The position numbers were made by a program, and so were the translations under genes. The notes under the pieces were generated by a model. That model saw nothing but the letters and a program-made list of their open reading frames with translations. It was not told the origin of the DNA and made no database searches. A stretch of 64,000 nt of DNA from Chloroflexota bacterium (GTDB lineage: Bacteria > Chloroflexota > Limnocylindria > P2-11E): contig JAJYLV010000001.1 of the NCBI GenBank assembly GCA_021787445.1, positions 6,968 through 70,967 on the forward strand, read 5' to 3'. Of this stretch, positions 9,894 through 57,403 are shown one piece after another; position 1 is the first letter of the stretch; the number at the start of each line of letters is the position of its first letter.

Positions 9894-11841
<1,948 letters not shown>

Positions 11842-30506: not shown

Positions 30507-30578
30507 CGCGGGGTGGTGGAGTGGTACCACGCGGGGCTCATAACCCCGAAGCCCTGGGTTCGAATCCCAGCCCCGCAA
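30507..30578 (+). tRNA. Initiator tRNA-fMet with anticodon CAT.
   Basis: It folds as a cloverleaf with acceptor CGCGGGG/CCCCGCA, showing the C1·A72 mismatch, D stem GTGG/CCAC and anticodon stem CGGGG/CCCCG. The anticodon stem has three consecutive G:C pairs closing the CTCATAA loop. The T arm is CTGGG-TTCGAAT-CCCAG, the discriminator is A, and CCA is not encoded. The C1·A72 mismatch together with the 3 G:C pairs are bacterial initiator identity elements. Confidence 0.85.
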
Positions 30579-30618
30579 CAGTCGTCCCCCGCGGCCCTCT
30601 CGCTCAGGAGAAGGCCGT

Positions 30619-31247: not shown

Positions 31248-31320
31248 GGCTGGGTAGCTCAGTGGTCAGAGCAGGCGACTCATAACCGCCAGGTCGTGGG
31301 TCCGATCCCCACCCCAGCCA
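31248..31320 (+). tRNA. Elongator-type tRNA with anticodon CAT (tRNA-Met, or possibly tRNA-Ile2 read by lysidine).
   Basis: The acceptor is GGCTGGG/CCCAGCC, the D arm GCTC-AGTGGTCA-GAGC and the anticodon loop CTCATAA. The T arm is GTGGG-TCCGATC-CCCAC and the discriminator is A. It lies immediately upstream of tilS, 6 nt before the tilS ATG. Confidence 0.75.
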
Positions 31321-31325
31321 CCGCC

Positions 31326-35563: not shown

Positions 35564-35827
35564 GTGTCCGCGGAGCAGCTGCACGCGATCCTCGACCGCG
35601 CGATGGCCGACGAGGCCTTCCGCGAGCTGCTCGCGCACGATCCGGAGACGGCGCTTGCCGGCTACGACCTCTCGCCCGAGGAGCGGGGCTCGTTCGGAAG
35701 TGGGACCGCGCGCGCGGAGAGGCTGGAGCCGCGCGTCTCGAAGAGCGACCTGTCGGCGGGCCTGGGAGTGAAGACGGGGACCGTCGACATCCGGCCCCCC
35801 TCGCAGACGATCCGGCCGCGCCGGTAG
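35564..35827 (+). CDS. Small protein (87 aa) with an NHLP/Nif11-like leader-peptide domain, a candidate RiPP-type precursor.
   Basis: The GTG at 35564 sits 4 nt after a GGTGAGGA Shine-Dalgarno sequence that lies inside the thpR 3' end. The segment SAEQLHAILDRAMADEAFRELLAHDPETALAGYDLSPEERGSF resembles the nitrile-hydratase-leader-peptide / Nif11 leader consensus (..AW.DEAF+.+LL..P.aAL...g..LpE..). Third codon positions are strongly GC-rich. The C-terminal 40 aa are Cys-free and Gly/Arg/Pro-rich. Confidence 0.5.
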   Translation: MSAEQLHAILDRAMADEAFRELLAHDPETALAGYDLSPEERGSFGSGTARAERLEPRVSKSDLSAGLGVKTGTVDIRPPSQTIRPRR

Positions 35828-35830
35828 GCG

Positions 35831-37777
35831 TCAGGACAGCCCCGGCTCCGGCCGGGAGCGCGCGTCGAGCGCCTCCATCGCGAACGGCGACACGCACATG
35901 ACGGCGACGCCCGCGGCCGCGACGACGCCGATGGCGGTGCGCGCCGGATCGCCGACGTACGCCGCCAGGAGCGTGTTCGCGACGGCCGGTACGCCGGCGA
36001 GGGCGATCGCGCTCGCGCCGAGGACGTAGGCGAGCGCCGCGAGGACGTACGCGACGGCTCCGGCCTCCCGTCGCGAGCGTGGCCGGCGGGGACGCCGCGC
36101 GAGGTCGCCGAACACGAAGCGCATGGCTTTGCGGCGCAGGGCGTTCGTATCGGTGAGGTCCGCGAGGACGTAGTAGCCGTCGAACTCGAGGAGCGGCGAA
36201 AGGTTGAACGCGACGAGGACGACGTTCGTCAGCGAGAGCCAGACGAGGAGGTCTTGTGCGGCCCCCGACGCGAGGCGCGCCGCGAGCCCGAGGACGCCCG
36301 CGAGCGCGAGGTTGAACAGGGGGCCCGCGGCGTTGACGCGGATCCGTCCCCAGCGGCGGATCGACCAGGTGGACGACGTGTCGACGTAGACGACCGGTGT
36401 GAACCAGAAGAGCCCGATGCCGGCGCGCCCGAGGCGCGACCCCTCCGCCTTCGCCGCGAGAGCGTGCGCGACCTCGTGGCCGATCCCGGCGAGGAGCAGC
36501 GCGACGAACGCCACGGCGACCCCGGCGATGCCGAACGCCGTCGGCGATGCGCCGCGCAGGACGGGCAGCGCGGCGACGAGGCCACCGATCCCGACGACGA
36601 TGGCGACGCCGGCGGCGGGGCCGGAGAACAGCGGCCGCAGGACGCGATGGAGCGCCGTCGCCGCGCCGTCGGCGCTCGCCAGCTCGACGTGCGGCGCCAG
36701 GACGGCGTCGATCGCGCGCAGGATCCGCCCGTTGCCGCCCGGCGTCGCCACGCGCGGCGCGGTGGCGAGACCCGCGACCTGCAGCGCGGCGACCGTCGAG
36801 AAGACGGCGTGCGGGTCGAGCCGTCCGGTCCGCTCGAAGTGCCGCAGCGAGAGGTCGCGCAGCGTGCGCTCGCCGTCCAGGTCCTCGTAGATCGCGAGCG
36901 CCTGGCGGTCGAGGCGGAGGTACACGCCGCGCTGCGGGTCGCCCACGATGACCGCGTCGGGATCGTCCGGAGCCGTGTCGATGCGATGCTGCCCCGCCCG
37001 GCGCGGAGCGTGGCGCGCCTGCATGACGGAGCGGACGCGCTCGAGGAGAGCGCGGTGCCGGATCACGACGGAGCGGACGTCGGCGCCGGGTATGACGAGG
37101 GCGTCGACGTCCGTGACGCATCGCACCAGCGCGGTCCGGGGCGACCCGGTGAGGACCGCGATCTCGCCGACGAGCGCGCCGGATCCGAGCCGTGACAGGA
37201 CGCGCTCCTCGGTGCCATCCGTCCGGACCACCTCGACCGTTCCCTCGCGCACGAGGTACACCTCGTCACCGCGCTCGCCCTGTCGCATGAGCACGGTGCC
37301 CGCGCCGAGGTGCACGGGGCGGAGACGCGCGGCGAGCTCCTCGGTCTCGTCCGAGGGGAGGTCCGTGAACGGCCCGGACCGGCGGAGGAACGCGTTCGCG
37401 CGCCGCGCCTCGGCGAACGACGCGAGCATCCGGGCGAAGTCCTCGTGGCGCTTCGCCACCTGGCGCAGGTCGGCCGCCTCGATCCGCAGGGCACGCACGG
37501 GGTCGAGGGCCACGACCGCGGCCGAGCGGCGCAGGCCGCCGAGGACCGCGAGCTCGCCGGTGAGGGCCGGTGCGGCCATCGTCGCGAGCGCGGTGCCGTC
37601 GTGCCCGATCACGCGGACGCGCCCGCTCAGCACGGCGAAGGCCGCGTCCGAGGCCTCACCCGGACGCATGAGCGGCTCGTCGCGCCGGAAGCGCACCGGA
37701 CGCGCGCGCGCGGCGAGCTCGGCGCGCGCCGCGGCGGGAAGGCCGAGGAATGGGCCGAAGGCGAGGTCGTCCGCCAC
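35831..37777 (-). CDS. Multi-domain membrane protein with two N-terminal cyclic-nucleotide-binding (CAP-like) domains fused to a C-terminal M50/site-2-protease-like polytopic zinc metalloprotease domain.
   Basis: Two cNMP-binding folds are present, including LGSGALVGEIAVLTGSPRTALVRCVTDVDALVI and the earlier TGELAVLGGLRRSAAVVAL. The C-terminal half has at least 6 TM helices carrying an HEVAH motif (HExxH) inside a helix and a downstream NLSPLLEFDGYYVL motif, which is the LDG-type third zinc ligand of S2P proteases. Confidence 0.65.
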   Translation of the reverse strand: MADDLAFGPFLGLPAAARAELAARARPVRFRRDEPLMRPGEASDAAFAVLSGRVRVIGHDGTALATMAAPALTGELAVLGGLRRSAAVVALDPVRALRIEAADLRQVAKRHEDFARMLASFAEARRANAFLRRSGPFTDLPSDETEELAARLRPVHLGAGTVLMRQGERGDEVYLVREGTVEVVRTDGTEERVLSRLGSGALVGEIAVLTGSPRTALVRCVTDVDALVIPGADVRSVVIRHRALLERVRSVMQARHAPRRAGQHRIDTAPDDPDAVIVGDPQRGVYLRLDRQALAIYEDLDGERTLRDLSLRHFERTGRLDPHAVFSTVAALQVAGLATAPRVATPGGNGRILRAIDAVLAPHVELASADGAATALHRVLRPLFSGPAAGVAIVVGIGGLVAALPVLRGASPTAFGIAGVAVAFVALLLAGIGHEVAHALAAKAEGSRLGRAGIGLFWFTPVVYVDTSSTWSIRRWGRIRVNAAGPLFNLALAGVLGLAARLASGAAQDLLVWLSLTNVVLVAFNLSPLLEFDGYYVLADLTDTNALRRKAMRFVFGDLARRPRRPRSRREAGAVAYVLAALAYVLGASAIALAGVPAVANTLLAAYVGDPARTAIGVVAAAGVAVMCVSPFAMEALDARSRPEPGLS

Positions 37778-37819: not shown

Positions 37820-38314
37820 CTAGGCGGAGAACTCCCGCGCGAGCAGGGCGCGCTCGCCGCGGCGCACCCGCGGCGGCAGCACGATCCCGCGGCGGCGGTA
37901 GTTCGCGTACGCGTAGCGGTCGCATTGCACCTCGGCGGACGTGCCCCAGCCGTGCACCAGGAAGAGCCAGTAGTGGCAGAACTCGTGGAGATAGAGGAAG
38001 CGGATCACGTCCCGGCGGGTGCGGAAGGGGACGAGGGGCCGTCCCAGGCTCCCGAGGTCGCAGACCTCCGCGAACGGGAGGAACGGCTCCGGTACCTGGA
38101 GCACCATCTCGGGCCGGTCCCAATAGGTGAAGGCCTGGAGATGCGGGCGGGTCCGGTAGCGGAGAGGCTTCACGCTGAGGCGGTAGCCGGTGGCCATCGG
38201 CAGCCCGCGCACGACGTCGCGGATCTTCTCCGCGGGATGGCTGGACAGCGCCGAGCGGACCGCCATCGGGCCGAGCGGGCGACCAGGGCCTTGGCGGGCA
38301 GGAATGATGGCCAT
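37820..38314 (-). CDS. SprT-like HExxH zinc-metallopeptidase-domain protein (164 aa).
   Basis: FLYLHEFCHYWLFLVHG parallels the SprT/Spartan motif LLHEMIHAYLF, with a third His 7 residues downstream. The composition is non-repetitive. It lies 43 nt upstream of, and is co-oriented with, the cNMP-M50 gene. Confidence 0.5.
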   Translation of the reverse strand: MAIIPARQGPGRPLGPMAVRSALSSHPAEKIRDVVRGLPMATGYRLSVKPLRYRTRPHLQAFTYWDRPEMVLQVPEPFLPFAEVCDLGSLGRPLVPFRTRRDVIRFLYLHEFCHYWLFLVHGWGTSAEVQCDRYAYANYRRRGIVLPPRVRRGERALLAREFSA

Positions 38315-38464
38315 GGAGCCTCAATGTACGGATGCGGATCGCGCGTCCGTTCCTGGTGGCTGGGGCGCCTCGCCCGGCCGCCTCTTGACGATCGCAAAAG
38401 CCCCTCCGGACGGCCTCCTGCTTGCCGCGCCGCCGCCCCCGCGCCTACCATCGGGCCAGCGTCG

Positions 38465-38722
38465 CTCGAGCGGGAGCGAGTAGGTCGCGGGAGCCGGTCA
38501 GAGAACCCCGGTCGGTGAGAAGGGGAACGGCGAAGGCGACGGAATGGGTCCCGCGAGACGCCGCCCTGAAAGCGCGAGCGAGTAGGGGCGGCCGGAAGCC
38601 CGCCGTTACCACCGGGCGGCCTGTATCTGCAGGCGCATGAGGCCCGCGGCGCGAGCCGCGAGCGAGTTCGGGTGGCACCACGACCCTCGTCCCGATGTTG
38701 GGGACGAGGGTCTTTGTTTTTT
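38465..38722 (+). promoter_or_regulatory. T-box riboswitch leader, probably tryptophan-specific, with a terminator/antiterminator in front of trpE(G).
   Basis: The conserved T-box sequence AGTTCGGGTGGCACCACG at 38665-38682 matches the consensus AAUUAGGGUGGNACCGCG, with N=C as expected for the G73 discriminator of tRNA-Trp. It overlaps the 5' arm of a perfect 12-bp terminator helix. An F-box-like CCGTTACC is present, there are duplicated GAGTA and AGAGA elements typical of Stem I, and a candidate UGG specifier lies at GGAATGGG. Confidence 0.6.
38682..38722 (+). terminator. Intrinsic terminator (attenuator) of the trp T-box leader.
   Basis: GACCCTCGTCCC-gatgttg-GGGACGAGGGTC is a 12-bp perfect stem followed by TTTGTTTTTT. 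It ends 10 nt before the trpE(G) ATG. Confidence 0.75.
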
Positions 38723-38732
38723 GGAGGCGGCG

Positions 38733-40937
38733 ATGGCGGAGACAGGCGAAAGGACGGCGCGCTACCGGACGCGTGGCGGCATCGGCGTCGTCCGGACGTC
38801 GACGCCGCTCGACCTGCCGGGCGCGATCGAGCCGATCGTCGACGCGCTCGACGAGCGCCTCGGCGTGCTCCTGGCCTCGAGCTACGAGTACCCGGGGCGG
38901 TACACGCGCTGGGACATCGGCTTCGTCGATCCGCCGCTGCGGGTCACGACGCGTGACCGGTCGTTCACGCTCGAAGCGCTCAACGATCGCGGCGCCATCC
39001 TCCTGCCGCGGCTCGCGCGGCATGTCGGCGCGCTGGATGCGGTCGAGAGGATCGACCGAACGGAGCGGCTCATCGAGGGGCGCATCCGCGAGGCGGAGCG
39101 GCGCTTCTCGGAGGAAGAGCGGAGCAAGCAGCATTCCGCTTTCTCGCTCATCCGCGGGGTCGTCGACCTCTTCGCGGCCCCGGAGGACAGGCACCTCGGC
39201 CTCTACGGCGCGTTCGCCTACGACCTCGCGTACCAGTTCGAGCGCATCGCGTACCGGCTCCCGCGGCCGGCCGACAAGCGCGACCTCGTGCTGTTCGTCC
39301 CCGACGAGCTCATCGTCGTCGATCACCGCCGCGAGGTCGCCACGCGGCACCGCTACGACTTCGAGGTGGACGGTCGCGTGACCGTCGGCCTCGAGCGGAC
39401 GGGCACCCGGGTCCCCCTCGCGCCCGCCCGCGCTCCCGAGCACGCTAACGACCACGCCCCCGGGGAATACGCCGCCACCGTGCGCGTCGCCCGCGAGGCG
39501 TTCGCGCGCGGCGACCTCTTCGAGGTCGTGCCGGGGCGGACCTTCTTCGAGTCGTGCGCTGTCCCGCCGTCCGAGCTCTTCCGGCGGCTGCGCGAGCGGA
39601 ACCCCGCGCCGTATGGCGCGCTCATGAGCCTCGGCGAGGGGGAGCACCTCGTCAGCGCGTCACCGGAGATGTACGTGCGCGTCGAAGGGACGCGCGTCGA
39701 GACGTGCCCGATCTCGGGCACCATCGCGCGCGGGATCGACGTCATGGGCGACGCCGACCACATCCTCGAGCTGCTCAACTCCGCCAAGGACGCGTCCGAG
39801 CTGACGATGTGCACCGACGTCGACCGCAACGACAAGTCGCGGATCTGCGTGCCCGGGAGCGTGCGAGTGATCGGGCGGCGGCAGATCGAGATGTACTCGC
39901 GCGTCATCCACACCGTCGACCACGTCGAGGGAACGCTGCGCGACGGCTACGACGCGATCGACGCGTTCCTCAGCCACGCCTGGGCGGTGACGGTCACGGG
40001 CGCGCCCAAGCTGTGGGCGATGCGGTTCATCGAGGCGCACGAGCGCTCGTACCGCGCGTGGTACGGCGGCGCGATCGGCGTCATCGGGTTCGATGGGAGC
40101 ATGAACACGGGGCTGACGCTGCGGACGATCCAGCTGAAGGGCGGCGTCGCGCAGGTCCGCGCGGGCGCGACGCTGCTCATCGATTCCGACCCGGAGGCGG
40201 AGGAGCGCGAGATCGACCTCAAGGCCGCGGCGTTCTTGGACGCCATAAGGCGTGCGCCGGGACGGATCGAGGGCGCGGCCCCGGAGAAGCCGCGCCGAGC
40301 CACGGACCTCCGTGGCGTCCGGGTGCTTCTCATCGACTACGAGGACTCGTTCGTGCACACCCTGGCGAACTACATACGACAGACCGGGGCGGAGGTGTCG
40401 ACGATCCGCGCGGGGCTCACGCGCGAGCAGCTCGCCGAGCAGCTCGCGGCCTACCGGCCGGACGGCGTCGTCCTCTCTCCCGGCCCCGGATGCCCGGCCG
40501 ATCTCGACGTGTCGCTCGCCGTCGGCGCCGCCGTCGAGGCGGGCCTGCCCCTCTTCGGCGTGTGCCTCGGGCTCCAGGGGATCGTCGAGCACTTCGGCGG
40601 GAAGCTCGGAGTGCTGCCGTACCCGATGCACGGGAAGGCCTCGCGGATCGACGTCCTCGGCGGGGCCATCTTCGAGGGTGTCCCCACGCCGTTCCGCGCC
40701 GGCCGGTACCACTCGCTGTACGCGCTGCGCGAGGCTCTGCCGGCAGACCTGCGCGTCACGGCGGTGGCCGACGACGGCGTCATCATGGCGATCGAGCACA
40801 CGCGGCTGCCGATCGCCGCGGTCCAGTTCCATCCCGAGTCGATCCTCACGCTGAAGGACGAGGTCGGGTCGCTCATCGTGCGCAACGTGGTCGAGCGGCT
40901 GGTGGCGCGAAGGCCGGCGCTGGCCGGAGGAAGGTAG
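38733..40937 (+). CDS. trpE(G): Anthranilate synthase with fused component I (TrpE) and glutamine amidotransferase component II (TrpG).
   Basis: The N-terminal 500 aa form a chorismate-binding TrpE domain (LMSLGEGEHLVSASPEMYVRV, CPISGTIARG, GYDAIDAFLSHAW, GAPK, RAWYGGAIGVIGFDG). The C-terminal 200 aa are a class-I GATase with the catalytic Cys context LPLFGVCLGLQ and HS..V.FHPES. The start is the ATG at 38733 behind a GGAGG ribosome-binding site. The upstream part of track ORF 38637-40937 belongs to the T-box leader. Confidence 0.8.
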   Translation: MAETGERTARYRTRGGIGVVRTSTPLDLPGAIEPIVDALDERLGVLLASSYEYPGRYTRWDIGFVDPPLRVTTRDRSFTLEALNDRGAILLPRLARHVGALDAVERIDRTERLIEGRIREAERRFSEEERSKQHSAFSLIRGVVDLFAAPEDRHLGLYGAFAYDLAYQFERIAYRLPRPADKRDLVLFVPDELIVVDHRREVATRHRYDFEVDGRVTVGLERTGTRVPLAPARAPEHANDHAPGEYAATVRVAREAFARGDLFEVVPGRTFFESCAVPPSELFRRLRERNPAPYGALMSLGEGEHLVSASPEMYVRVEGTRVETCPISGTIARGIDVMGDADHILELLNSAKDASELTMCTDVDRNDKSRICVPGSVRVIGRRQIEMYSRVIHTVDHVEGTLRDGYDAIDAFLSHAWAVTVTGAPKLWAMRFIEAHERSYRAWYGGAIGVIGFDGSMNTGLTLRTIQLKGGVAQVRAGATLLIDSDPEAEEREIDLKAAAFLDAIRRAPGRIEGAAPEKPRRATDLRGVRVLLIDYEDSFVHTLANYIRQTGAEVSTIRAGLTREQLAEQLAAYRPDGVVLSPGPGCPADLDVSLAVGAAVEAGLPLFGVCLGLQGIVEHFGGKLGVLPYPMHGKASRIDVLGGAIFEGVPTPFRAGRYHSLYALREALPADLRVTAVADDGVIMAIEHTRLPIAAVQFHPESILTLKDEVGSLIVRNVVERLVARRPALAGGR

Positions 40938-40939
40938 CC

Positions 40940-41968
40940 GTGGACTGTCGTGAGGCTCTCGGCGCCGTCGTGACCGGGCGGACCCTGACGCGTGAGGAGG
41001 CGCGGACCGTGATGACGTCCGTCATGGCGGGCGAGGCGACGCCGGCGCAGCTCGGCGCTTTCCTCGCCGCCCTGCGCGTGCGCGGCGAGACCGTCGATGA
41101 GATCGCCGGCTTCGCCCTCGGCATGCGCGAGGCGGGTGTCCCCGTACGTCTCGACGCGCCCGCCGTCGACATCGTCGGCACCGGTGGCTCCCAGACGGAC
41201 CCGTTCAACATCTCGACGGTCGCGAGCATCGTCGTCGCCGGCGCGGGGGCGCGCGTCGCGAAGCACGGCAACCGGGCGGCATCGGGCAAGTGCGGGAGCG
41301 CGGACGTGCTCGAGGCCCTGGGCGTCCGGATCGACCTCGGCCCCGACGAGATCGCGCGGTGCGTGCGCGACGTCGGGATCGCGTTCATGTTCGCTCCGCG
41401 CTTCCACCCCGCCATGCGCCATGCGGGGCCGGTGCGGCGCGAGATCGGGATCCGTACGTTCTTCAACCTCCTCGGTCCGCTCGCGAACCCCGCCGGCGTG
41501 CGTACGATCGTCATCGGCGTGCCCACCCCGGAGCTCGGCGAGCGCCTCGCGCGCGTCCTCGCGGAGCTGGGCATCGAGCGCGGGCTCGTCGTGCACGGCC
41601 ATGACGGTCTGGACGAGATCAGCCCGACCGGACCGAGCCGGACCTGGGAGGTCCGCGCCGGCAGCGTGCACGAGGGGACGATCGACCCCGCCGCGCTGGG
41701 GATCCGGCTGGCCTCGGTGTCGGAGATCCTCAGCGGCGATCCGCCCGCGAATGCCGCGACGGCCCGCGCGATCCTCGCCGGCGAGCAGGGCGCGCGACGC
41801 GACACGGTCGTCCTCAACGCCGGCGCGGCGCTCGTGGTCGCGGGCGTCGCGGGCGACGTCCGCGAGGGGATGGCGCTCGCCGCGCGCTCGATCGACAGCG
41901 GCGCGGCGCAGGCGACGCTCGCGCGCTGGGCGGAGACGAGCCAGCGGCTGGGGGCTGCGGGCGCATGA
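40940..41968 (+). CDS. trpD: Anthranilate phosphoribosyltransferase.
   Basis: DIVGTGGSQTDPFNISTVASIVVAGAGARVAKHGNRAASGKCGSADVLEALG is the TrpD signature. The start is the GTG at 40940, 3 nt after the trpE(G) stop. Confidence 0.85.
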   Translation: MDCREALGAVVTGRTLTREEARTVMTSVMAGEATPAQLGAFLAALRVRGETVDEIAGFALGMREAGVPVRLDAPAVDIVGTGGSQTDPFNISTVASIVVAGAGARVAKHGNRAASGKCGSADVLEALGVRIDLGPDEIARCVRDVGIAFMFAPRFHPAMRHAGPVRREIGIRTFFNLLGPLANPAGVRTIVIGVPTPELGERLARVLAELGIERGLVVHGHDGLDEISPTGPSRTWEVRAGSVHEGTIDPAALGIRLASVSEILSGDPPANAATARAILAGEQGARRDTVVLNAGAALVVAGVAGDVREGMALAARSIDSGAAQATLARWAETSQRLGAAGA

Positions 41969-42819
41969 GCGACTTCCTCGAACGGGTCGTCGCCGAGCGG
42001 CGGGCGGACGCGGAGAACGCGTCGCACGCCGTGGCTGAGGCCGACGTCGTGGCGCGCGCTCGCCGCCGCGGTCCGACCCGAGCTCCGTCGGGCGGATCGA
42101 ACGACCCGTTCACCCGCGCGCTGGCGGAGCGCCGCGCGGCGGCGCGGCTCGCGGTCATCGCCGAGGTCAAGAGGGCCTCCCCCTCGCAGGGCGTGCTCGG
42201 TCGCGGCGTCGACGTCCGTGCCCTCGCGCGCCGCTACGCGGGGGCGGGCGCCGCCGCGATCTCGGTGCTGTGCGAGCCGCGGCACTGGGGCGGCTCGCTC
42301 GCCGACCTGAGCGCCGTGCGCGAGAGCGTCGACGTGCCCGTGCTGTGCAAGGACGTCATCGTGACCGGATACCAGGTCGCGGAGGCGTGCTCGGCGGGGG
42401 CGAGCGCCGTCCTCCTGATCGCGGAAGCCCTCGACGACGAGGAGATCCGGCGCCTGGCGACGCGCGCCTTCGAGCTCGGGATGGGGGTCCTCATCGAAGC
42501 GCACGAGACCGCGGCCTTCGAGCGCGCGGTGCGGACCGGCGCGGCGGTCGTTGGCGTGAACGCACGCGACCTGCGCGCCCCGGCGGAGATCCGCCCCGAG
42601 CGGATCCGGCTGCTGCACCATCTCGCGCGGCCGGAGCACATCCTCGTCGCGGAGTCGGGCATCGGGAGCGAGGAGGACGCCCGCGCGCTCCCTGCGCGCG
42701 TCGATGCCGTTCTCGTCGGCGCCGCGCTCATGCGCGCCAGCGACCCCGGGGTCCTCGTCCGCCGGCTGGCGTCGCTGACGCGCGAGCGGGCGGAGCCAGC
42801 GGGAAGGAGCGTCCCATGA
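41965..42819 (+). CDS. trpC: Indole-3-glycerol phosphate synthase.
   Basis: The motifs [36 protein letters not shown] and LVGAALM are present. The start overlaps the trpD stop as ATGA. Confidence 0.85.
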
Positions 42820-43997
42820 GCCTGCCGGAGGCGGCGCGCGGACGGTTCGGGGCCTTCGGCGGGCAGTACGTCCCCGAGACGCTCATGCCCGCGGTCATCG
42901 AGCTCGAAGCGGCCTTCGACGAAGCGTGGAAGGAGCCGGCGTTCCGCGACGAGCTCGACGGCCTCCTCCGGACGTACGTCGGCCGGCCGACGCCACTGAC
43001 CGACGCACGTCGCCTCGCCGACGCGGTCGGGCTGCGGCGCGTGCTCCTCAAGCGCGAGGACCTCACGCACACCGGCGCGCACAAGATCAACAACGCCATC
43101 GGCCAGGCGCTCCTGGCGAAGAGGATGGGGAAGAAGCGTGTCATCGCCGAGACCGGCGCGGGTCAGCACGGCGTCGCGACGGCGACCGCGTGCGCCCTCC
43201 TCGGCCTCGAGTGCGTCGTCTACATGGGGACGCTCGACATGGAACGCCAGCGGCCGAACGTGTTCCGCATGCGCCTCCTCGGCGCCGACGTTCGCGGCGT
43301 CGACGCGGGGAGCCGGACGCTCAAGGACGCGGTGAACGAGGCGATCCGCGACTGGGTGACGAACGTGCGTACGACGTACTACCTCCTGGGGTCGGCCATC
43401 GGGATGCACCCGTATCCGACGATCGTGCGTGAGCTGCAGTCGGTCATCGGCCGCGAGGCGCGCGCGCAGTCGCTGGACCTCCTCGGCCGCCTCCCGGACC
43501 TGGTCACGGCGTGCGTCGGCGGCGGCTCGAACGCGATCGGGACGTTCGCGGCCTTCCTCGGCGACACGGCTGTGAGGCTCCGGGGCGTCGAGGCCGGCGG
43601 GGAGGGTGTGCCGAGCGGCAAGCACGCCGCGTCGATCGTCGGCGGCTCCGTCGGCGTGCTGCACGGGACGAAGACGTACGTACTGCAGGACGACGATGGG
43701 CAGATCCGCGAGACGCACTCGATCTCCGCCGGGCTCGACTACCCGGGGGTCGGCCCGCAGCACGCGGCGCTGCACGACAGCGGGCGCGTCACCTACGTCG
43801 CGCGCACCGACGCCGAGGCGCTCGACGCGTTCCGGCTCCTCTGCCGCACGGAGGGGATCATCCCCGCGCTCGAGCCCGCCCACGCGATCGCGGATCTCCG
43901 CTACGTCGCGCGGGAGCTCGGACGTGACCTCGACGTCCTCGTCTGCCTCTCGGGCCGCGGCGACAAGGACCTCGACACGGTGATGAGGACGCTGTGA
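42816..43997 (+). CDS. trpB: Tryptophan synthase beta chain.
   Basis: [36 protein letters not shown] (the PLP-lysine context) and GGGSNAIG are present. The start overlaps the trpC stop as ATGA. Confidence 0.9.
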
Positions 43998-44812
43998 CCG
44001 TCGCACGTCTCAGCGGCATCGAGCGGATCGAGCGCGCGTTCGCGGCGGCCAAGCGCGAGCGGCGGATGGCCATCGTCATCTACCTCATGACCGGCTTCCC
44101 GCGCCGCGACGCGACGCGCGGCCTGGTCCGCGCGGCGCTCGACGGCGGCGCGGACGTCATCGAGCTCGGCGTGCCCTTCAGCGATCCGATGGCCGACGGG
44201 ACGACGGTCCAGCGCGCGGGCGAGACCGCGCTGCGCGAGGGGATCCGCCTCGACGACTGCATCGCCGAGGCGCGTACCGCGGTCGCCGAGCGCGACGCGA
44301 CGGTCGTGCTCATGGGCTACCTCAACCCGTTCTTGCGGTACGGGCCGCAGCGTCTCGCCGATGCCCTGCGCTCCGCGGGGGTCGCGGGCGTCATCGCGCC
44401 CGACCTCCCGGTCGAGGAGAGCGCCGAGATCGACGCGGCGCTCATGCCCGCGGGGGCGGCGCGGATCGACATGTTCGCGCCGACGACGCCGGACGGTCGC
44501 CTCGAGCGCCTCCTTCCGCGGGCGCGCGGCTTCGTGTACTGCGTGTCGCTCACCGGCGTGACGGGAGCCCGCGCCGGCCTGTCGGAGGAGGTCGGTCCGT
44601 TCGTCCGGAGGGTGCGCGCGCGCACACCGCTCCCGATCGTCGTCGGCTTCGGGATCAGCCGCCCGGAGCACGTCCGCGCGCTGCGCGGCGTCGCCGACGG
44701 CGTCGCCGTGGGCAGCGCCGCGATCGACGCGATCGACCGTGCCGAGCGGGGTCGATCGGAGGATGCGCTGCGCGACCTGGTGCGGTCGCTCCGAGAGGCC
44801 GGCGCCGCATGA
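43994..44812 (+). CDS. trpA: Tryptophan synthase alpha chain.
   Basis: The motifs are [35 protein letters not shown] and VVGFGIS. Confidence 0.9.
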
Positions 44813-45192
44813 CGGCCGTGCGCGGCGTCCGCGGCGCGACGACGGTCGCGGCGAACGACCGGGATCAGATCGTCTCCGCGACGAAGGGCCTGCTCGAGCG
44901 GATCGTCGCGCTGAACGGGATGGTCCCCGACGACGTCGCGAGCGTGTGGTTCACCGTCACGCCCGACCTCGACGCCGAGTTCCCCGCGGTGGCGGCGCGT
45001 GGGATCGGGTGGACGGACGTCCCGCTCATCTGCGGGCGCGAGATCCCCGTCCCCGGATCCCTGGAGCGCTGCATCCGCGTCCTCATCCACTGGAACACGG
45101 ACCGCGCCCAGTCCGAGGTCCGCCACGCCTTCCTGCGCGAGGCACGGGCGCTGCGCCCGCAGTGGGCCGTGGACGAGAGGGAGGCGACGTAG
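44809..45192 (+). CDS. aroH: Chorismate mutase of the AroH class (monofunctional).
   Basis: The N-terminus AVRGVRGATTV and the 127-aa size match the AroH-class fold. The start overlaps the trpA stop as ATGA. Confidence 0.7.
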   Translation: MTAVRGVRGATTVAANDRDQIVSATKGLLERIVALNGMVPDDVASVWFTVTPDLDAEFPAVAARGIGWTDVPLICGREIPVPGSLERCIRVLIHWNTDRAQSEVRHAFLREARALRPQWAVDEREAT

Positions 45193-46233
45193 ATGCTCGT
45201 GGTCATGAAGCGCGACGCGACGCAGGCCGAGATCGACCAGGTCGTCGCGCGCGTCTCGGAGCTCGGCCTCACCGCGATCCCGCTGCCCGGGACGGAGCGC
45301 ACCGCGATCGGCACCTTCGGCGTCGCGGCGCAGGAGGCGGGGGAGCAGCTGGAATCGATGCCGGGCGTGCAGGAGATCGTCTACGTGTCGCGGCCGTTCA
45401 AGCTGAGCTCACGCGAGGTCCGCGCCGAGGACACGATCGTGCGCATCGGCGGCGTCGAGGTCGGCGCGGGCCGCCCGGTCGCGGTGATGGCCGGGCCCTG
45501 CTCGGTCGAGACGCGCGAGCAGACGATCGCGACGGCGCGCGCCGTCCACGACGCGGGTGCGACGGTGCTGCGCGGGGGCGCGTACAAGCCGAGCACCTCG
45601 CCGTACCACTTCCGCGGGCTCGGCGAGCCCGGGCTCGCGATCCTTCAGGAGGCGGGGCGCGCGGCCGGCCTTCCCGTCGTCACCGAAGTGCTCACGCCCG
45701 GGGACGTCGACCTCGTCGCGCGCCACGCCGACTGCCTCCAGATCGGCACGCGCAACAGCCAGAACTTCAGCCTCCTCGACGCCGTCGGCGAGACGCGCAT
45801 GCCGGTCCTGCTCAAGCGCGGGATGTCCGGGACGATCGAGGAGCTCCTGCTCTCGGCCGAGTACATCCTCGCCAAGGGCAACCCACAGGTGATCCTCTGC
45901 GAGCGCGGCATCCGCACCTTCGAGAAGTACACCCGCAACACTTTCGACGTGAGCGCGATCCCTCTCCTCAAGCGCTTATCGCACCTGCCCGTCATCGCCG
46001 ACCCGTCGCACGGCACGGGCAAGTGGTACCTGGTCGCTCCGGTCGCGCTCGCCGCCGTCGCGGCCGGCGCCGACGGCGTCATCATCGAGGTGCACCCGAG
46101 CCCGGACCACGCGCTGAAGGACGGCTTCCAGTCGCTCACGTTCGAGAACTTCGCCGGGCTCATGCGGACGCTCCCCGGAGTGGCGCGCGCCGTGGGGCGT
46201 CCGGTCGCCGCGGCCGCTGCCGTGACCGCGTGA
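45193..46233 (+). CDS. aroF: 3-deoxy-7-phosphoheptulonate (DAHP) synthase, type I-beta, with an N-terminal ACT/ferredoxin-like regulatory domain.
   Basis: A KDSO8P/DAHP synthase TIM-barrel core ([46 protein letters not shown]) is preceded by a regulatory domain of about 80 aa, as in the Thermotoga-type enzyme. Confidence 0.8.
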
Positions 46234-47027
46234 TGCGGGTCCGCGTCGTCGGCCTGGGGCTCATCGGTGGGTCGATCGCGCTGGGCCTGCGGGGGCGCCA
46301 CGACGTCGCGGGGTACGACCGGGACGACGCGGCGCGGGCCGCGGCGCGCGGGCGCGGCATCGTCGTCGTCGACGCGCTCGACGCCGTGCTCCCGGCCGAC
46401 GCGGTCGTCGTCGCGACGCCGCTCGCGGCCGTCGTGCCGACGCTGCGCGCTCTCGCGCCGCGCGCGGCCGGCGCGGTGCTCGTCGAGGTCGGCTCGCTCA
46501 AGGCCGACGTCGCCCTGTTCGCCGAGAGCGCTCCCGAGAGCGTGCGGATCGTCGGCCTGCATCCCATGGCGGGCAGCACCGCGAGCGGCATCGCCGCCGC
46601 CGACCCGGCCCTGCTGCGCGGACGGCCATTCCTCGCGGTCGCCACGGCGCGCTCGGACGAGCGCTCCATGGCGCTCGTCGGCGACCTGGCCCGCGACCTG
46701 GGCGGGAGCGTGACGGTCTGCTCGCCGGCGGTCCACGACCGCGCCATCGCCGCCGTGTCGGCGCTCCCCCTGGCGTCGGCGATCGCGCTCGACGCCGTGG
46801 CGCGGGCGGCGCTGCCGATGCCCTTCGAGGCGGTCGCCGGCACGGGTATCCGTGACGCGACGCGGCTCGCCGCGACGCCGCCCGAGCTCGCGCTTCCGCT
46901 CCTGGGAGCACCGGGACTGCCCGAGCACATCGCCGCGCTGCGCGAGCGGTTGGGCGAGATCGAGCGCGCGCTCGGCGACGAGCGCGCTCTGCGCAGGCTC
47001 CTCGCGGAGCGCGCGGAGCGGGCGTGA
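46233..47027 (+). CDS. tyrA: Prephenate dehydrogenase.
   Basis: The Rossmann motif VVGLGLIGGSIALGL is followed by GLHPMAGS. The start overlaps the preceding stop as TGATG. Track ORF 44739-47027 is a run-on in this frame. Confidence 0.75.
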   Translation: MRVRVVGLGLIGGSIALGLRGRHDVAGYDRDDAARAAARGRGIVVVDALDAVLPADAVVVATPLAAVVPTLRALAPRAAGAVLVEVGSLKADVALFAESAPESVRIVGLHPMAGSTASGIAAADPALLRGRPFLAVATARSDERSMALVGDLARDLGGSVTVCSPAVHDRAIAAVSALPLASAIALDAVARAALPMPFEAVAGTGIRDATRLAATPPELALPLLGAPGLPEHIAALRERLGEIERALGDERALRRLLAERAERA

Positions 47028-47815
47028 CGGCGGTCGGCTTCGCCTTCGACGCCGCGCTCGGTCCCGGCGTCTCCTCGGCGGTCGCCGCGGAGGTCGAGCG
47101 CCTCGACTACGCCAGCCTGTGGACGAACGACACGCCGAACGCGCCGGGCCTGCCGATCCTCGCCGCGGCCCAGCGCGTGACGGCCCGCATCCCCGTCGGC
47201 GTCGGTGTCATCCCGTGCGACCGCCGCTCGGCGAGGGACGTCGCCGCGGGCGTCACGAACGCCGGGCTCGACCTGCGCCGCGCGGTCATCGGTATCGGCG
47301 CGGGCCGCGCCGAGCGCCCCGCCGCCGCCGTCCGCGAGGCGGTGGACGAGCTGCGGCGCGTCCTGCGCCCCGGCGCGGTCGTCGCCGTCGCCGCGATGGG
47401 CCCGCGCATGTGCCGTCTCGCGGGTGAGATCGCGGACGTCGTCCTGCTCAACTGGATGACGCCCGAGCGCATCCGCTGGGCGCGCGAGCGTGTTCGCGAA
47501 GGAGAGCGCCGAGCGGGCCGCGACGCGGGCAGTGTCGTCGTCGCCTCGTACGTCCGCGTCGCGGTGGGTCGCGATGCGCGCGAGCGCCTCGCCCACGCGG
47601 CGGAGAGGTACACGCGCTTCCCGGCGTACGCCCGCAGCTTCGCGGCGATGCGCGTCGCACCGGAGACGGTGGGCGTCGCCGCGGTGAGCGAGGAGGAGGC
47701 GCGCGCGGCGCTCGCGCCGTACCGCGAGGCGCTCGACGAGACGATCGTGCGGGCGCTGCCGACCTTCCCGACGGCGGAGAGCGTGCTCGAGCTCGCGCGA
47801 GCGACGCGTCCCTAG
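47024..47815 (+). CDS. LLM-class flavin- or F420-dependent oxidoreductase (luciferase-like monooxygenase family).
   Basis: It shows the luciferase-like TIM-barrel pattern (LDYASLWTNDTP ... AGEIADVVLLNWMTPE). It is translationally coupled to tyrA as ATGA. Confidence 0.5.
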   Translation: MTAVGFAFDAALGPGVSSAVAAEVERLDYASLWTNDTPNAPGLPILAAAQRVTARIPVGVGVIPCDRRSARDVAAGVTNAGLDLRRAVIGIGAGRAERPAAAVREAVDELRRVLRPGAVVAVAAMGPRMCRLAGEIADVVLLNWMTPERIRWARERVREGERRAGRDAGSVVVASYVRVAVGRDARERLAHAAERYTRFPAYARSFAAMRVAPETVGVAAVSEEEARAALAPYREALDETIVRALPTFPTAESVLELARATRP

Positions 47816-48978
47816 CCCACGAAGTCCCCGATCACGAGCTCGTTCGCGATCGCCGCGAGGAGGAGCAGCGACACGATGGCGTAGGACCACAGCGCGCGGC
47901 GCCGCTCGAGCAGGAGCGCCAGGACGACGAACGCGGGGAACACCACCAGCAGGTAGCGTGACGTCGACGTCAGCGGCGTCGGGAGGATGCGGAGCCACAG
48001 GAACGCGATCTGAGGGGCCGCGTAAAGGGAGAGGTCGGCCCGCAGCCGGGCGGCACCCACGATGAGGAGGGCCGTGGCCCCGACGAGCAGCGCGAGCTCG
48101 AGCGCTTCCAACGGGTCGCCCCGGCGCCGCGTCCAGTCGAGCGCCGCGGCGAGGACGTCCCAAGGGGGGTGGTACGCGGAGCCGGTCCAGAGCGCGGAGG
48201 CGGCGAACATGGAGACGCCGACGACGCGCTGCGTGTAGAGGACGAACGCGCCGAACGCCGCGGGCGCCGCCACGACGGCGGCGGCGGCGGCGACACGTTC
48301 CTCACGCTCCGCGCGGCGCCGCCACGCCGTCCACAGGAGCGGCAACACGAGGACGACGCCGACCGGACGCGCCAGGGCGGCGAGGAACGCGCATGCCGCG
48401 GCGGCGCTCCAGCCCCCGCGCCGCGCGAAGTCGAGTGACCAGACGGAGGCGGCGAGAAGGATCGCTTCGGAGAACGGCGCGACGAGGAACAGCGACGCGG
48501 GGAAGACGCTCAGGAGGAGGATCGCCCGGCGTGCGACGTCCCTGCCGTGATCGTCCTCGACGATCCGGTGGATGCCCCAGAGCGCGAGGACCGCGGCCAC
48601 GAGGTCGACGATCATGCCCGCGATCACGACGTGCGGACCGAAGAGCGCGACGACGCGCTCGAGCGCCGGGAAGAGCGGGAAGAACGCCGTCGAGCCGTCG
48701 CCCTGGTAGCCCGTCGTCGCGATGTGCGCGTACCAGCACGCGTCCCAGCGCTCCCAGACGCCGACGAGCTTGAACGCGAGGCCCTCCTTGTACTGGAGCG
48801 GCATCACGCTCCAGCCGTTGCGCGCCTCTTCGAAGTGGCACGGCTGCGGGATGGTGCGCTCGCTCGCGACGTACAGCGCGAAGATCGAGAGCGCGACGCG
48901 GAGCGTGAGGACCAGCCACGTCGCCTCGAGGAGGCCGTCGGGGAGCGCCCGAAGGCGGCGGAGCGCGCCGTCGATCAG
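47812..48978 (-). CDS. PIG-V/mannosyltransferase-like polytopic membrane glycosyltransferase (GT family resembling GPI mannosyltransferase 2).
   Basis: The conserved WERWDACWYAHIATTGY ... AFFPLFPALE motif follows a first TM helix, and there are more than 8 TM helices downstream. Only the C-terminal 390 aa of the giant track ORF 47812-51345 are real. The TM helix precedes the first ATG or GTG, so the start is tentatively placed at the CTG that overlaps the aroA stop. Its stop overlaps the LLM gene stop convergently. Confidence 0.55.
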   Translation of the reverse strand: MIDGALRRLRALPDGLLEATWLVLTLRVALSIFALYVASERTIPQPCHFEEARNGWSVMPLQYKEGLAFKLVGVWERWDACWYAHIATTGYQGDGSTAFFPLFPALERVVALFGPHVVIAGMIVDLVAAVLALWGIHRIVEDDHGRDVARRAILLLSVFPASLFLVAPFSEAILLAASVWSLDFARRGGWSAAAACAFLAALARPVGVVLVLPLLWTAWRRRAEREERVAAAAAVVAAPAAFGAFVLYTQRVVGVSMFAASALWTGSAYHPPWDVLAAALDWTRRRGDPLEALELALLVGATALLIVGAARLRADLSLYAAPQIAFLWLRILPTPLTSTSRYLLVVFPAFVVLALLLERRRALWSYAIVSLLLLAAIANELVIGDFVG

Positions 48979-56424: not shown

Positions 56425-56520
56425 AACGGGAGCTCGGGCCTGCCGGGCTGAGAGGGTGGCGGGGGCCACCGACCGTGCAAGGGACCTGATCCGGGTAATG
56501 CCGGCGCAGGGACGAGGTCC
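56425..56520 (+). promoter_or_regulatory. TPP (THI-box) riboswitch.
   Basis: GGCCTGCCGGGCTGAGAGGGTGGCGGGGGCCACCGACCGTGCAAGGGACCTGATCCGGGTAATGCCGGCGCAGGGA contains the conserved CUGAGA and ACCUGAUCCGG.UAAUGCCGGCG.AGGGA elements of the TPP aptamer. It lies 40 nt upstream of thiD. Confidence 0.85.
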
Positions 56521-56557: not shown

Positions 56558-57403
56558 ATGACACGTCCGAGCGGTCGCGAGCGCTGGGGGCGCGCCGTCG
56601 CGCTCACCATCGCGGGCTCGGACTCCTCGGCCGGCGCCGGCATCCAGGCCGACCTCAAGACCTTTCAGGCGATCGGCGTCTACGGCGCGAGCGCGATCTC
56701 GGCGCTCACGGCGCAGAACACGCTCGGCGTACGGGGGGTCGAGGAGGCCTCGCCGGAGATCGTCGCCGCGCAGATCGACGCCGTCGTCGAGGACCTGGGG
56801 GTCGACGGCGCGAAGACGGGGATGCTCGCGAACGGCCGGGTCGTGCACGCGGTCGCCGATCGCGTGCGTCGGTGGGCGCTCGGGGACGTGCTCGTCGTCG
56901 ATCCGGTGATCCTCGCGACGGATGGCACGCGGCTCCTCGGCGAGAGCGGCCTTCGCATCCTCGTCAGCGAGCTCCTCCCGCTCGCCGCCGTGGTCACGCC
57001 GAACCTCCCGGAGGCCGCGGCGATCCTCGGGCACGTGGTCGCGGACGACGACGACGAGCTCCGCCGGGCGGCGCGCGAGCTGCGCGAGCTCGGGCCGCGC
57101 GCGGTCGTCCTCACGGGTGGGCACCGCGTGGGCCCCGCCCGCGACGTGTACGTCGATGGCCGCACCGAAGAGCTCCTCGACGCCGAGCGGGTGGCCACTA
57201 CGAGCACCCACGGCACCGGCTGCACGTTCTCCGCCGCGATCGCGGCGCGGATCGCGCTCGGCGACGAGGCGATCGACGCCGTCCGCTACGCCAAGGGCTT
57301 CGTCACGCGGGCGATCGAGCTCGCGCGCCCGCTCGGTGGCGGACACGGCCCGCTCGCGCACGAGGCCGCCGCCCGCTCCGAGGGAACGCCGGTGGCCCGA
57401 TGA
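56558..57403 (+). CDS. thiD: Hydroxymethylpyrimidine/phosphomethylpyrimidine kinase.
   Basis: TIAGSDSSAGAGIQADLKT is the ThiD signature, with ribokinase-like fold motifs. The start is the ATG at 56558. The upstream part of track ORF 56378-57403 is the riboswitch. Confidence 0.85.
   Translation: MTRPSGRERWGRAVALTIAGSDSSAGAGIQADLKTFQAIGVYGASAISALTAQNTLGVRGVEEASPEIVAAQIDAVVEDLGVDGAKTGMLANGRVVHAVADRVRRWALGDVLVVDPVILATDGTRLLGESGLRILVSELLPLAAVVTPNLPEAAAILGHVVADDDDELRRAARELRELGPRAVVLTGGHRVGPARDVYVDGRTEELLDAERVATTSTHGTGCTFSAAIAARIALGDEAIDAVRYAKGFVTRAIELARPLGGGHGPLAHEAAARSEGTPVAR

Follow-up and report, generated by a model that had tools for sequence, protein, structure and literature searches.

The operon and its leader region

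The window analysed here is a 64-kb stretch of DNA from a Chloroflexota bacterium (64,000 nucleotides (nt) of contig JAJYLV010000001.1), with a GC content of about 72% throughout. It contains a nine-gene operon for aromatic amino acid biosynthesis on the + strand, headed by trpE(G), the gene for a fused anthranilate synthase. The intergenic region 5' of trpE(G) is 418 nt long and separates it from a divergent open reading frame (ORF) of 164 aa (37820-38314, - strand) that has no Pfam match. Our analysis indicates that a full-length class I T-box leader, preceded by a promoter, is very probably encoded in this 418-nt region; the leader would act on the nine genes by transcription attenuation.

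The first gene, trpE(G) (38733-40937), encodes anthranilate synthase I+II in a single chain of 734 aa with Pfam Chorismate_bind and GATase domains. It matches TIGR01815 with 1081.3 bits (cut-off 739, residues 11-726) and NF010081 with 1100.6 bits (cut-off 645), which identifies it as the fused type. It is followed by trpD for anthranilate phosphoribosyltransferase (40940-41968; TIGR01245, 394 bits, cut-off 199) and trpC for indole-3-glycerol-phosphate synthase (41965-42819, 284 aa; Pfam IGPS, 224.6 bits, residues 5-268), which has no TrpF domain. The tryptophan synthase beta and alpha subunits are encoded by trpB (42816-43997; TIGR00263, 610 bits, cut-off 392) and trpA (43994-44812; TIGR00262, 215.7 bits, cut-off 102). 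Next are the genes for a monofunctional chorismate mutase (CM) of the aroH class (44809-45192; TIGR01796, 150 bits, cut-off 82; Pfam CM_1) and a type I-beta DAHP synthase (DAHPS; 45193-46233; NF006421, 462 bits, cut-off 335). The DAHP synthase contains Pfam DAHP_synth_1, and its N-terminus is a ferredoxin-like regulatory domain (DAHP_snth_FXD, residues 1-66). The eighth gene, tyrA (46233-47027, 264 aa), has the Pfam domains PDH_N and PDH_C and no ACT domain. Its best NCBIfam match, NF005650, scores 139.5 bits, under the cut-off of 290, and the protein is named by family only, as a prephenate/arogenate dehydrogenase. The last gene encodes a luciferase-like (LLM) oxidoreductase of 263 aa (47024-47815; Pfam Bac_luciferase, 61.8 bits) and overlaps tyrA by 4 nt.

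The gene junctions are, in order, +2, -4, -4, -4, -4, 0, -1 and -4 nt. These distances and the Pfam and NCBIfam identities bear out the original prediction of nine tightly coupled genes. Our promoter and terminator scans covered 38000-48500, and no other + strand terminator-like site was found in this range besides the one in the leader. A PIG-V-like mannosyltransferase gene and aroA are located downstream on the - strand, converging on the operon.

The sequence motifs predicted for the leader are all present at their predicted places. The T-box 10-mer GGGTGGCACC is located at 38670-38679 and the F-box CCGTTA (CCGUUA in the RNA) at 38603-38608. TGG is found at 38545-38547 within GAATGGGTCCCGC, in the context GAA-TGG-G-TCCCGC. 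A terminator with its U-tract ends 10 nt upstream of trpE(G), as had been proposed; the start codon itself is the ATG at 38733, not 38734. A Shine-Dalgarno sequence read from the DNA, GGAGG, is found at 38723-38727, 5 nt before the ATG. The bare 10-mer GGGTGGCACC occurs once against 0.38 copies expected, and at least one copy appeared in 30 of 100 shuffles. The 10-mer GGGTGGNACC was rejected as stand-alone evidence, its frequency being not above chance. The case must therefore rest on the whole RNA.

Homologous leaders in related genomes

A search with the TrpE(G) protein yielded 80 genome loci. The six closest (69-86% identity) are Chloroflexota metagenome-assembled genomes (MAGs), one of them labelled 'Candidatus Limnocylindria'. 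In all six, GGGTGGCACC is found 72-107 nt upstream of the trpE(G) gene. Of the more distant loci, 34 from other phyla were checked (L008-L049; loci other than the window are given by such numbers), and the GGGTGGNACC motif was found upstream of TrpE(G) in none of them. We also scanned metagenomes using the antiterminator sequence GGGTGGCACCACGA(N)CCCTCGTCCC as the pattern, which gave at least 120 contigs (L082-L201), mostly from soil. The alignment used below, A3, draws on Chloroflexota MAGs and soil metagenomes and comprises 102 distinct leaders homologous to that of the window, among the matches listed.

Gene content behind these leaders is conserved. Among the matches listed, the gene after the T-box leader in loci with enough downstream sequence is a fused trpE(G) (70-78% identity), trpE followed by trpG, or trpD (L096, L155 and L192). 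Related loci that extend far enough, again among the matches listed, have the order trpE-trpG or trpE(G), then trpD-trpC-trpB-trpA-CM-DAHPS-tyrA. The exceptions are L183, which lacks DAHPS, L006, which lacks CM and tyrA, and L155, which is rearranged.

Both forms of anthranilate synthase occur behind homologous leaders. Among the matches listed, 38 long loci are located behind Trp T-boxes, 29 of them with split trpE+trpG and eight with fused trpE(G). In a neighbour-joining tree of TrpD, which has no support values, the fused-type loci are placed in at least four separate places among the split-type loci. This suggests that the anthranilate synthase gene or genes may have been exchanged in situ repeatedly, with the riboswitch retained.

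Structure and covariation of the leader

A covariance-model search against Rfam found a T-box leader RNA (RF00230) at 38456-38697 on the + strand, covering model positions 1-219, the full length of the model. The match scores 47.2 bits; its E-value is 2.3e-9 when only the leader is searched and 3e-7 when all 4227 families are run against the whole window. The gathering score of RF00230 is 93, and the match is visible only under an E-value threshold. In a default Rfam scan of the window at gathering thresholds no T-box was reported, only two tRNA-Met genes.

The pairing predicted for this RNA is conserved across relatives. For the six genome leaders, RNAalifold gave a structure of 71 pairs, and 22 of these show compensatory changes. 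We then wrote the canonical T-box structure, including the IIA/B pseudoknot, onto the 102-leader alignment and counted pairs. Standard pairs occupy 91.2% of the 6195 pair cells; sliding the 3' partners by 1-3 columns lowers this to 39-44%. Double-sided changes are found in 38 of the 61 pairs (628 cells). The covariation score is 0.289, compared to 0.05-0.07 for the slid partners, and none of 500 shuffles reached any of the observed pairing measures. These data indicate that RNA pairing is under purifying selection across the 102 leaders.

Stem I (38466-38558) contains a GA (K-turn-like) motif at its base and the specifier loop. The Rfam alignment places its AG bulge, AGAGA, at 38500-38504 and its distal loop, GGUCGGUGAGAA, at 38510-38521. 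Residues A40, G41, G43, A44, U56, G57 and A60 of Stem I are invariant in the 102 leaders. The AGNGA and GGUG..A motifs are likewise invariant, and the platform formed by the AG bulge and the distal loop is present. All Stem I helices show compensatory changes, both in RNAalifold and in the pair counts. The middle helices have a lower level of pairing, about 67%, which we attribute to MAFFT misalignment around small indels and do not take as disproof of the helices.

The elements downstream of Stem I are those of a T-box. Stem II (38560-38592) has eight pairs, seven of them with double-sided changes, and 96.9% of its cells are paired. The Stem IIA/B pseudoknot, which includes the F-box, is located at 38593-38617. 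Its IIA part consists of three nearly invariant pairs. The pseudoknot helix between GCCC (38598-38601) and GGGC (38614-38617) is 97.8% paired, and two of its pairs are changed on both sides, from C-G to U-A. The CCGUUA F-box is invariant from its second base onward in the 102 leaders. Stem III (38642-38663) has nine pairs, most of them with compensatory changes, and is capped by a GCGA tetraloop.

An extra hairpin is found between Stem IIA/B and Stem III (38619-38634). It is absent from the Rfam consensus and is treated there as an insertion. The hairpin has six pairs, five of them changed on both sides, and is 98.5% paired. At this site, several relatives, among them L003, L004, L086, L087 and L097, carry structured insertions of 60-90 nt. 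Other relatives have insertions in the Stem II loop. Insertions are also seen in L133, L149 and L180.

Specifier codon and tRNA match

The specifier codon is UGG (Trp) at 38545-38547. It lies where the specifier loop ends on its 3' side: GAA precedes the codon, and one G separates it from the helix strand UCCCGC. AATGG is found unchanged in every one of the 102 distinct leaders. In leaders placed by regular expression, TGG follows GAA in 94 of 94 and is itself followed by A (52 leaders), G (27) or C (15). The pair that closes the specifier loop, A15-U89, is kept in 97 of 97 scorable leaders and is G-C in one of them. TBDB assigns specifiers in the '+0' frame, whose codon ends immediately before the final unpaired base of the specifier loop. 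Since the A15-U89 pair is kept, UGG holds the three positions before the last unpaired base and is in the +0 frame. The predicted UGG specifier is thus in the canonical loop position, with a closing pair that is both kept and covarying.

TBDB also indicates that cognate tRNA-Trp species carry a G discriminator, and that the N of UGGN is U in 46% of Trp T-boxes. In the window this position is C, so that Watson-Crick pairing with the tRNA-Trp discriminator G would be expected. We searched for a tRNA-Trp gene to check the discriminator, and found none in the window or in the collected related loci.

Switch elements, putative promoter and proposed mechanism

Two mutually exclusive structures are found at the 3' end of the leader. 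The antiterminator (38669-38694 in the Rfam alignment) consists of the helix CGGG/CCCG, a 7-nt bulge UGGCACC and the helix ACGA/UCGU, and has a calculated energy of -5.0 kcal/mol. UGGC in the bulge (38673-38676) would pair with the tRNA 3' end GCCA. The intrinsic terminator found by the terminator scan (38682-38722) has a perfect 12-bp stem and a 7-nt loop followed by UUUGUUUUUU. Its hairpin spans 38682-38712, the U-tract TTTGTTTTTT is at 38713-38722, and the fold is calculated at -26.9 kcal/mol, far below the antiterminator. The 5' arm of the terminator (38682-38693) shares bases with the 3' strand of the antiterminator (38687-38694), so that only one of the two can form. The proposed overlap of T-box sequence and terminator is found in the antiterminator 3' strand. 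The Shine-Dalgarno sequence lies outside the terminator hairpin, which argues that control in the window is transcriptional.

A putative sigma-70-type promoter is located at 38422-38451. It consists of a -35 element TTGCCG (38422-38427), an 18-nt spacer and a -10 element TACCAT (38446-38451), and would place the transcript start near 38458. A TAnnnT hexamer precedes the conserved start of the leader, ending 9-10 nt upstream of it in 81 of 99 leaders; with the distance widened to 8-11 nt, the figure is 93 of 99. TTGCC(G/A/C) followed 17-18 nt later by TACCAT is common to the window, L002, L006 and L085. A scan of 38000-48500 for consensus sigma-70 promoters found none.

We are highly confident that the leader is a Trp-specific transcriptional T-box. 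The mechanism proposed here builds on the sequence motifs, the structure established by covariation, the codon register, the overlap of terminator and antiterminator, the gene identities and the conservation of the operon. Stem I would present UGG to tRNA-Trp (anticodon CCA), and the AG bulge and distal loop would form the platform on which the tRNA elbow docks. When the tRNA is uncharged, its free 3' end GCCA would pair with the UGGC bulge. This pairing would stabilize the weak antiterminator (about -5 kcal/mol) and allow RNA polymerase to read into the operon. With charged tRNA-Trp, the antiterminator would remain unstabilized and its 3' strand would be captured by the 12-bp terminator (about -27 kcal/mol). 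Transcription would then end 10 nt before the start codon, termination being the default state. The read-through transcript would span the nine genes, assuming that they are co-transcribed. Charging of tRNA-Trp would thereby jointly set transcription of the Trp branch, the shikimate entry enzyme and the Tyr branch. The ferredoxin-like domain of the DAHP synthase probably adds feedback by Tyr or Phe at the enzyme level.

Weighing the evidence

Several observations weigh against this interpretation. An RF00230 search, proposed with the original prediction as a check, narrowly avoided returning no hit: the match is full length, but its score of 47.2 bits is about half the gathering score and lies below the curated threshold. 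The composition bias term of the match is large (26.2), and the leaders of relatives also score under 93, at 41.5-62.3 bits, all of them full length. The minimum free energy z-score of the leader is only -1.74. The antiterminator carries no covariation information; it is invariant in the relatives because the scan used it as its pattern. In 15 of 94 relatives UGG is followed by C instead of the canonical purine. No tRNA-Trp gene of this lineage was found in the loci searched, and the match between G73 and C is taken from general knowledge. Two relatives, L006 (about 9950-9990) and L007 (about 270-310), keep the terminator hairpin with weak, interrupted U-tracts that contain C and G (TTTCGCGTTCTT and GTTTCCGTCTCT), which raises the question of termination efficiency. 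Finally, there may be internal promoters within the coding sequence. The gathering score is an operational cut-off and not a structural feature of the T-box family, and membership in the family rests on structure and covariation, not on the Rfam threshold. Folding of the whole leader by minimum free energy was set aside as evidence, since the z-score is uninformative and the fold prefers the terminator form.

The position of the codon and the conservation of the RNA bear on two readings that dispute what the leader senses or whether it senses a tRNA at all. The specifier could be an overlapping GGN (Gly) or AUG frame, so that another tRNA is sensed. Without the A15-U89 pair, the +0 frame of GAAUGGG would be GGG, and the changes among A, G and C at the next base would leave a Gly codon in every case. 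The closing pair is kept in every scorable leader and covaries to G-C, fixing the register. The UGGC bulge fits the G discriminator of tRNA-Trp and mismatches tRNA-Gly, which in bacteria normally has U73. GGA, GGG and GGC would need three tRNA-Gly isoacceptors in close relatives, and the downstream operons are all trp operons, among the matches listed. We therefore reject the Gly frame and regard sensing of any other tRNA as extremely unlikely. It is also very improbable, if slightly less so, that the leader is a decayed T-box relic or uses another mechanism (leader-peptide attenuation, a TRAP-like protein or translational control), with a terminator that is constitutive or irrelevant. The sub-threshold Rfam score would fit a relic, and an ATG at 38637, in frame with trpE(G), passes through one UGG. 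Against a relic stand the purifying selection on pairing in the 102 leaders and the invariance of all tRNA-contacting motifs. No short leader ORF with tandem Trp codons was found. The reading frame from 38637 lacks both a stop codon and a Shine-Dalgarno sequence; counted from 38733, the match to the NCBIfam model begins at residue 6. Sequestration of the ribosome binding site is unlikely because the Shine-Dalgarno sequence lies outside the terminator hairpin.

The reach of the switch along the operon is less certain than its nature. The Trp T-box may be real and effective on the trp genes only, with aroH, DAHPS, tyrA and LLM transcribed mainly from an internal promoter in trpA or in another upstream coding sequence. 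In that case, a super-operon under one switch would be overstated. In favour of this reading, the aromatic supraoperon of B. subtilis has internal promoters. In L005, L163, L171 and L188 the gap between CM and DAHPS is 70-120 nt, and the distal block appears modular, L183 being without DAHPS and L006 without CM and tyrA. In the window, however, the corresponding junctions are -4, 0, -1 and -4 nt and leave no intergenic space, and no sigma-70 consensus promoter was found in 38000-48500. A second regulatory RNA and a + strand terminator were looked for in the CM-DAHPS gap of L005, and neither was found. The gene order is also conserved across the clade. We consider separate transcription of the distal genes unlikely. 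The T-box is probably the only transcriptional control of all nine genes, a claim that we hold with less confidence than the Trp-specific T-box itself.

The trpF step and the LLM gene

The operon was predicted to lack trpF. Using TrpF from L016 in tblastn and a hidden Markov model (HMM) built from seven TrpF sequences of more distant loci, we found no trpF in the operon, in the 64-kb window or in the related T-box operons (L002-L007, L082-L201), in agreement with that prediction. In more distant TrpE(G) loci (L011, L012, L016, L017, L020, L025 and L041), trpF is located next to trpC. In Actinobacteria, a PriA-like HisA performs the TrpF step. In the window lineage, the step must be either encoded elsewhere or carried out by another enzyme such as a PriA-like HisA.

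The LLM protein is probably of the F420-dependent branch. Among NCBIfam models, those nearest to it describe F420 LLM families, and none reaches its cut-off (best TIGR03620, 70.1 bits against 219.8), which gives no subfamily assignment. Its closest PDB sequence is the F420-dependent Mer (E 7.5e-11 over about 70 residues), and F420 as the cofactor is only suggested by these similarities. The closest database relatives have generic names only. Orthologues with 56-62% identity occupy the same place, with the 4-nt tyrA overlap, in L207 and L208. The LLM gene also follows tyrA in L188 and DAHPS in L006. Homologues with at most 48% identity are found in unrelated contexts (nrdR/dcd, thiamine genes, serS).

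In most relatives tyrA directly abuts the convergent aroA. Only in the window subclade (47024-48900 in the window; L188, L207, L208 and L006) are the LLM gene (+ strand) and the PIG-V-like mannosyltransferase gene (- strand) located between tyrA and aroA. The original prediction had left the LLM gene unexplained. It is indeed present at the operon tail, and it is most simply accounted for as a later, subclade-specific addition to that tail rather than as a core enzyme of the aromatic pathway. A role of LLM as a conserved aromatic enzyme or as a substitute for TrpF was rejected as a general explanation, because most T-box operons of the clade have neither LLM nor trpF and the homologues with at most 48% identity are located elsewhere.

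Other features of the window

A thiamine pyrophosphate (TPP) riboswitch match is found at 56426-56512 (+ strand; 44.1 bits against a gathering score of 54.3, E 2.3e-5), with CUGAGA and CCUGAUCCGGGUAAUGCCGGCG motifs. It is located 45 nt upstream of thiD (56558-57403), which encodes a phosphomethylpyrimidine kinase (Pfam Phos_pyr_kin, 278.7 bits). This predicted element is a second high-GC riboswitch missed at default thresholds.

The two tRNA-Met (CAT) genes, at 30507-30579 and 31248-31322 (+ strand), are about 700 nt apart. A gene fragment at about 35733-35827 (L001 1-95) matches Pfam Frankia_peptide (PF14407) and adjoins a cNMP-binding/M50 peptidase gene (35831-37777, - strand). In the relative L188, an 82-nt segment (2177-2258) scores 60.8 bits to the animal mir-3158 model, equally on both strands. 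Rather than a microRNA, the segment is presumably a palindromic hairpin that is close to perfect.

Implications

The finding extends Trp-specific T-box control to a poorly studied Chloroflexota lineage that is abundant in soil and freshwater. Default Rfam annotation misses the whole group (41-62 bits compared to 93), and re-seeding the model for high-GC genomes would be a possible use of the 102 leaders. A Trp attenuator upstream of both the first shikimate enzyme and the Tyr branch offers a case in which cross-pathway regulation can be tested. Our understanding of the T-box mechanism is unchanged by the finding.

A more far-reaching combination of claims is improbable when taken as a whole. 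It would hold that these leaders form a distinct high-GC T-box subfamily missed by Rfam, which is widespread in Chloroflexota of soil and freshwater and carries an extra stem that can expand. DAHP synthase, CM and TyrA would have no transcriptional control other than a single tRNA-Trp sensor, and the universally missing trpF step would come from a PriA-like HisA elsewhere or, in the window subclade, from the LLM barrel protein. If all of this were true, charging of tRNA-Trp would set the flux into all aromatic amino acids.

Comparison with known systems

The leader shares the architecture of class I T-boxes (RF00230, for example B. subtilis tyrS). Common features are Stem I with its GA motif, the S-turn/specifier loop, the AG bulge and the distal loop, as well as Stem II, the IIA/B pseudoknot with its F-box, Stem III, the UGGN bulge, the overlapping terminator and the +0 codon. 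It differs from the RF00230 family in its very high GC content, with scores of 41-62 bits against the gathering score of 93. A second difference is the additional hairpin, which covaries and is the site of large insertions in some members. In contrast to the Trp T-boxes in TBDB, 46% of which have U at the variable position of UGGN, N is C here and is Watson-Crick complementary to G73.

The accepted taxonomic range of T-boxes comprises Firmicutes, Actinobacteria, Chloroflexi and Deinococcus-Thermus. Firmicutes trpEGDCFBA T-boxes likewise have a Trp specifier upstream of the trp biosynthesis genes. Some bacilli have tandem T-boxes on trp operons, whereas a single one is found here. T-boxes in Chloroflexi, including those on a Dehalococcoides trpE and a trpB-like gene, have been described (Wels et al., 2008; PMC2494555). 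Trp T-boxes are also known on trpB of Chloroflexus and Roseiflexus and on trpS of Herpetosiphon (Sun et al., 2013; PMC3766115, supplement 2). Compared by description, these earlier Chloroflexi Trp T-boxes belong to the same phylum and riboswitch class and have the same specificity and control of Trp biosynthesis. The leader in the window belongs to another lineage and would control a unit of eight to nine genes that adds CM, DAHP synthase and tyrA.

Units that combine trp genes with common-pathway and Tyr-branch genes are found in the B. subtilis supraoperon (aroFBH-trpEDCFBA-hisC-tyrA-aroE) and in the streptococcal tyrA-trpEGDCFBA, which has a Trp T-box (Sun et al., 2013; PMC3766115). In each, as proposed here, a Trp signal influences other aromatic branches. 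Trp control of the B. subtilis supraoperon is by TRAP, unlike the T-box here. Gene order and content also differ from both units. Here DAHP synthase and CM are located downstream of the trp genes, and trpF is absent. The fused trpE(G) resembles TIGR01815 'TrpE-clade3' (Rhizobium/Azospirillum/Nostoc), which it matches over the full length with its chorismate-binding and class-I GATase domains. Here it is located behind a T-box, and sister lineages have split trpE and trpG at the same position. Neither the T-box mechanism nor its Trp-specific use on trp operons is new, the latter being known from both Firmicutes and Chloroflexi. The new particulars are the lineage, the systematic sub-threshold Rfam scores, the extra expandable hairpin, and the presence of DAHPS, CM and tyrA behind a Trp attenuator.

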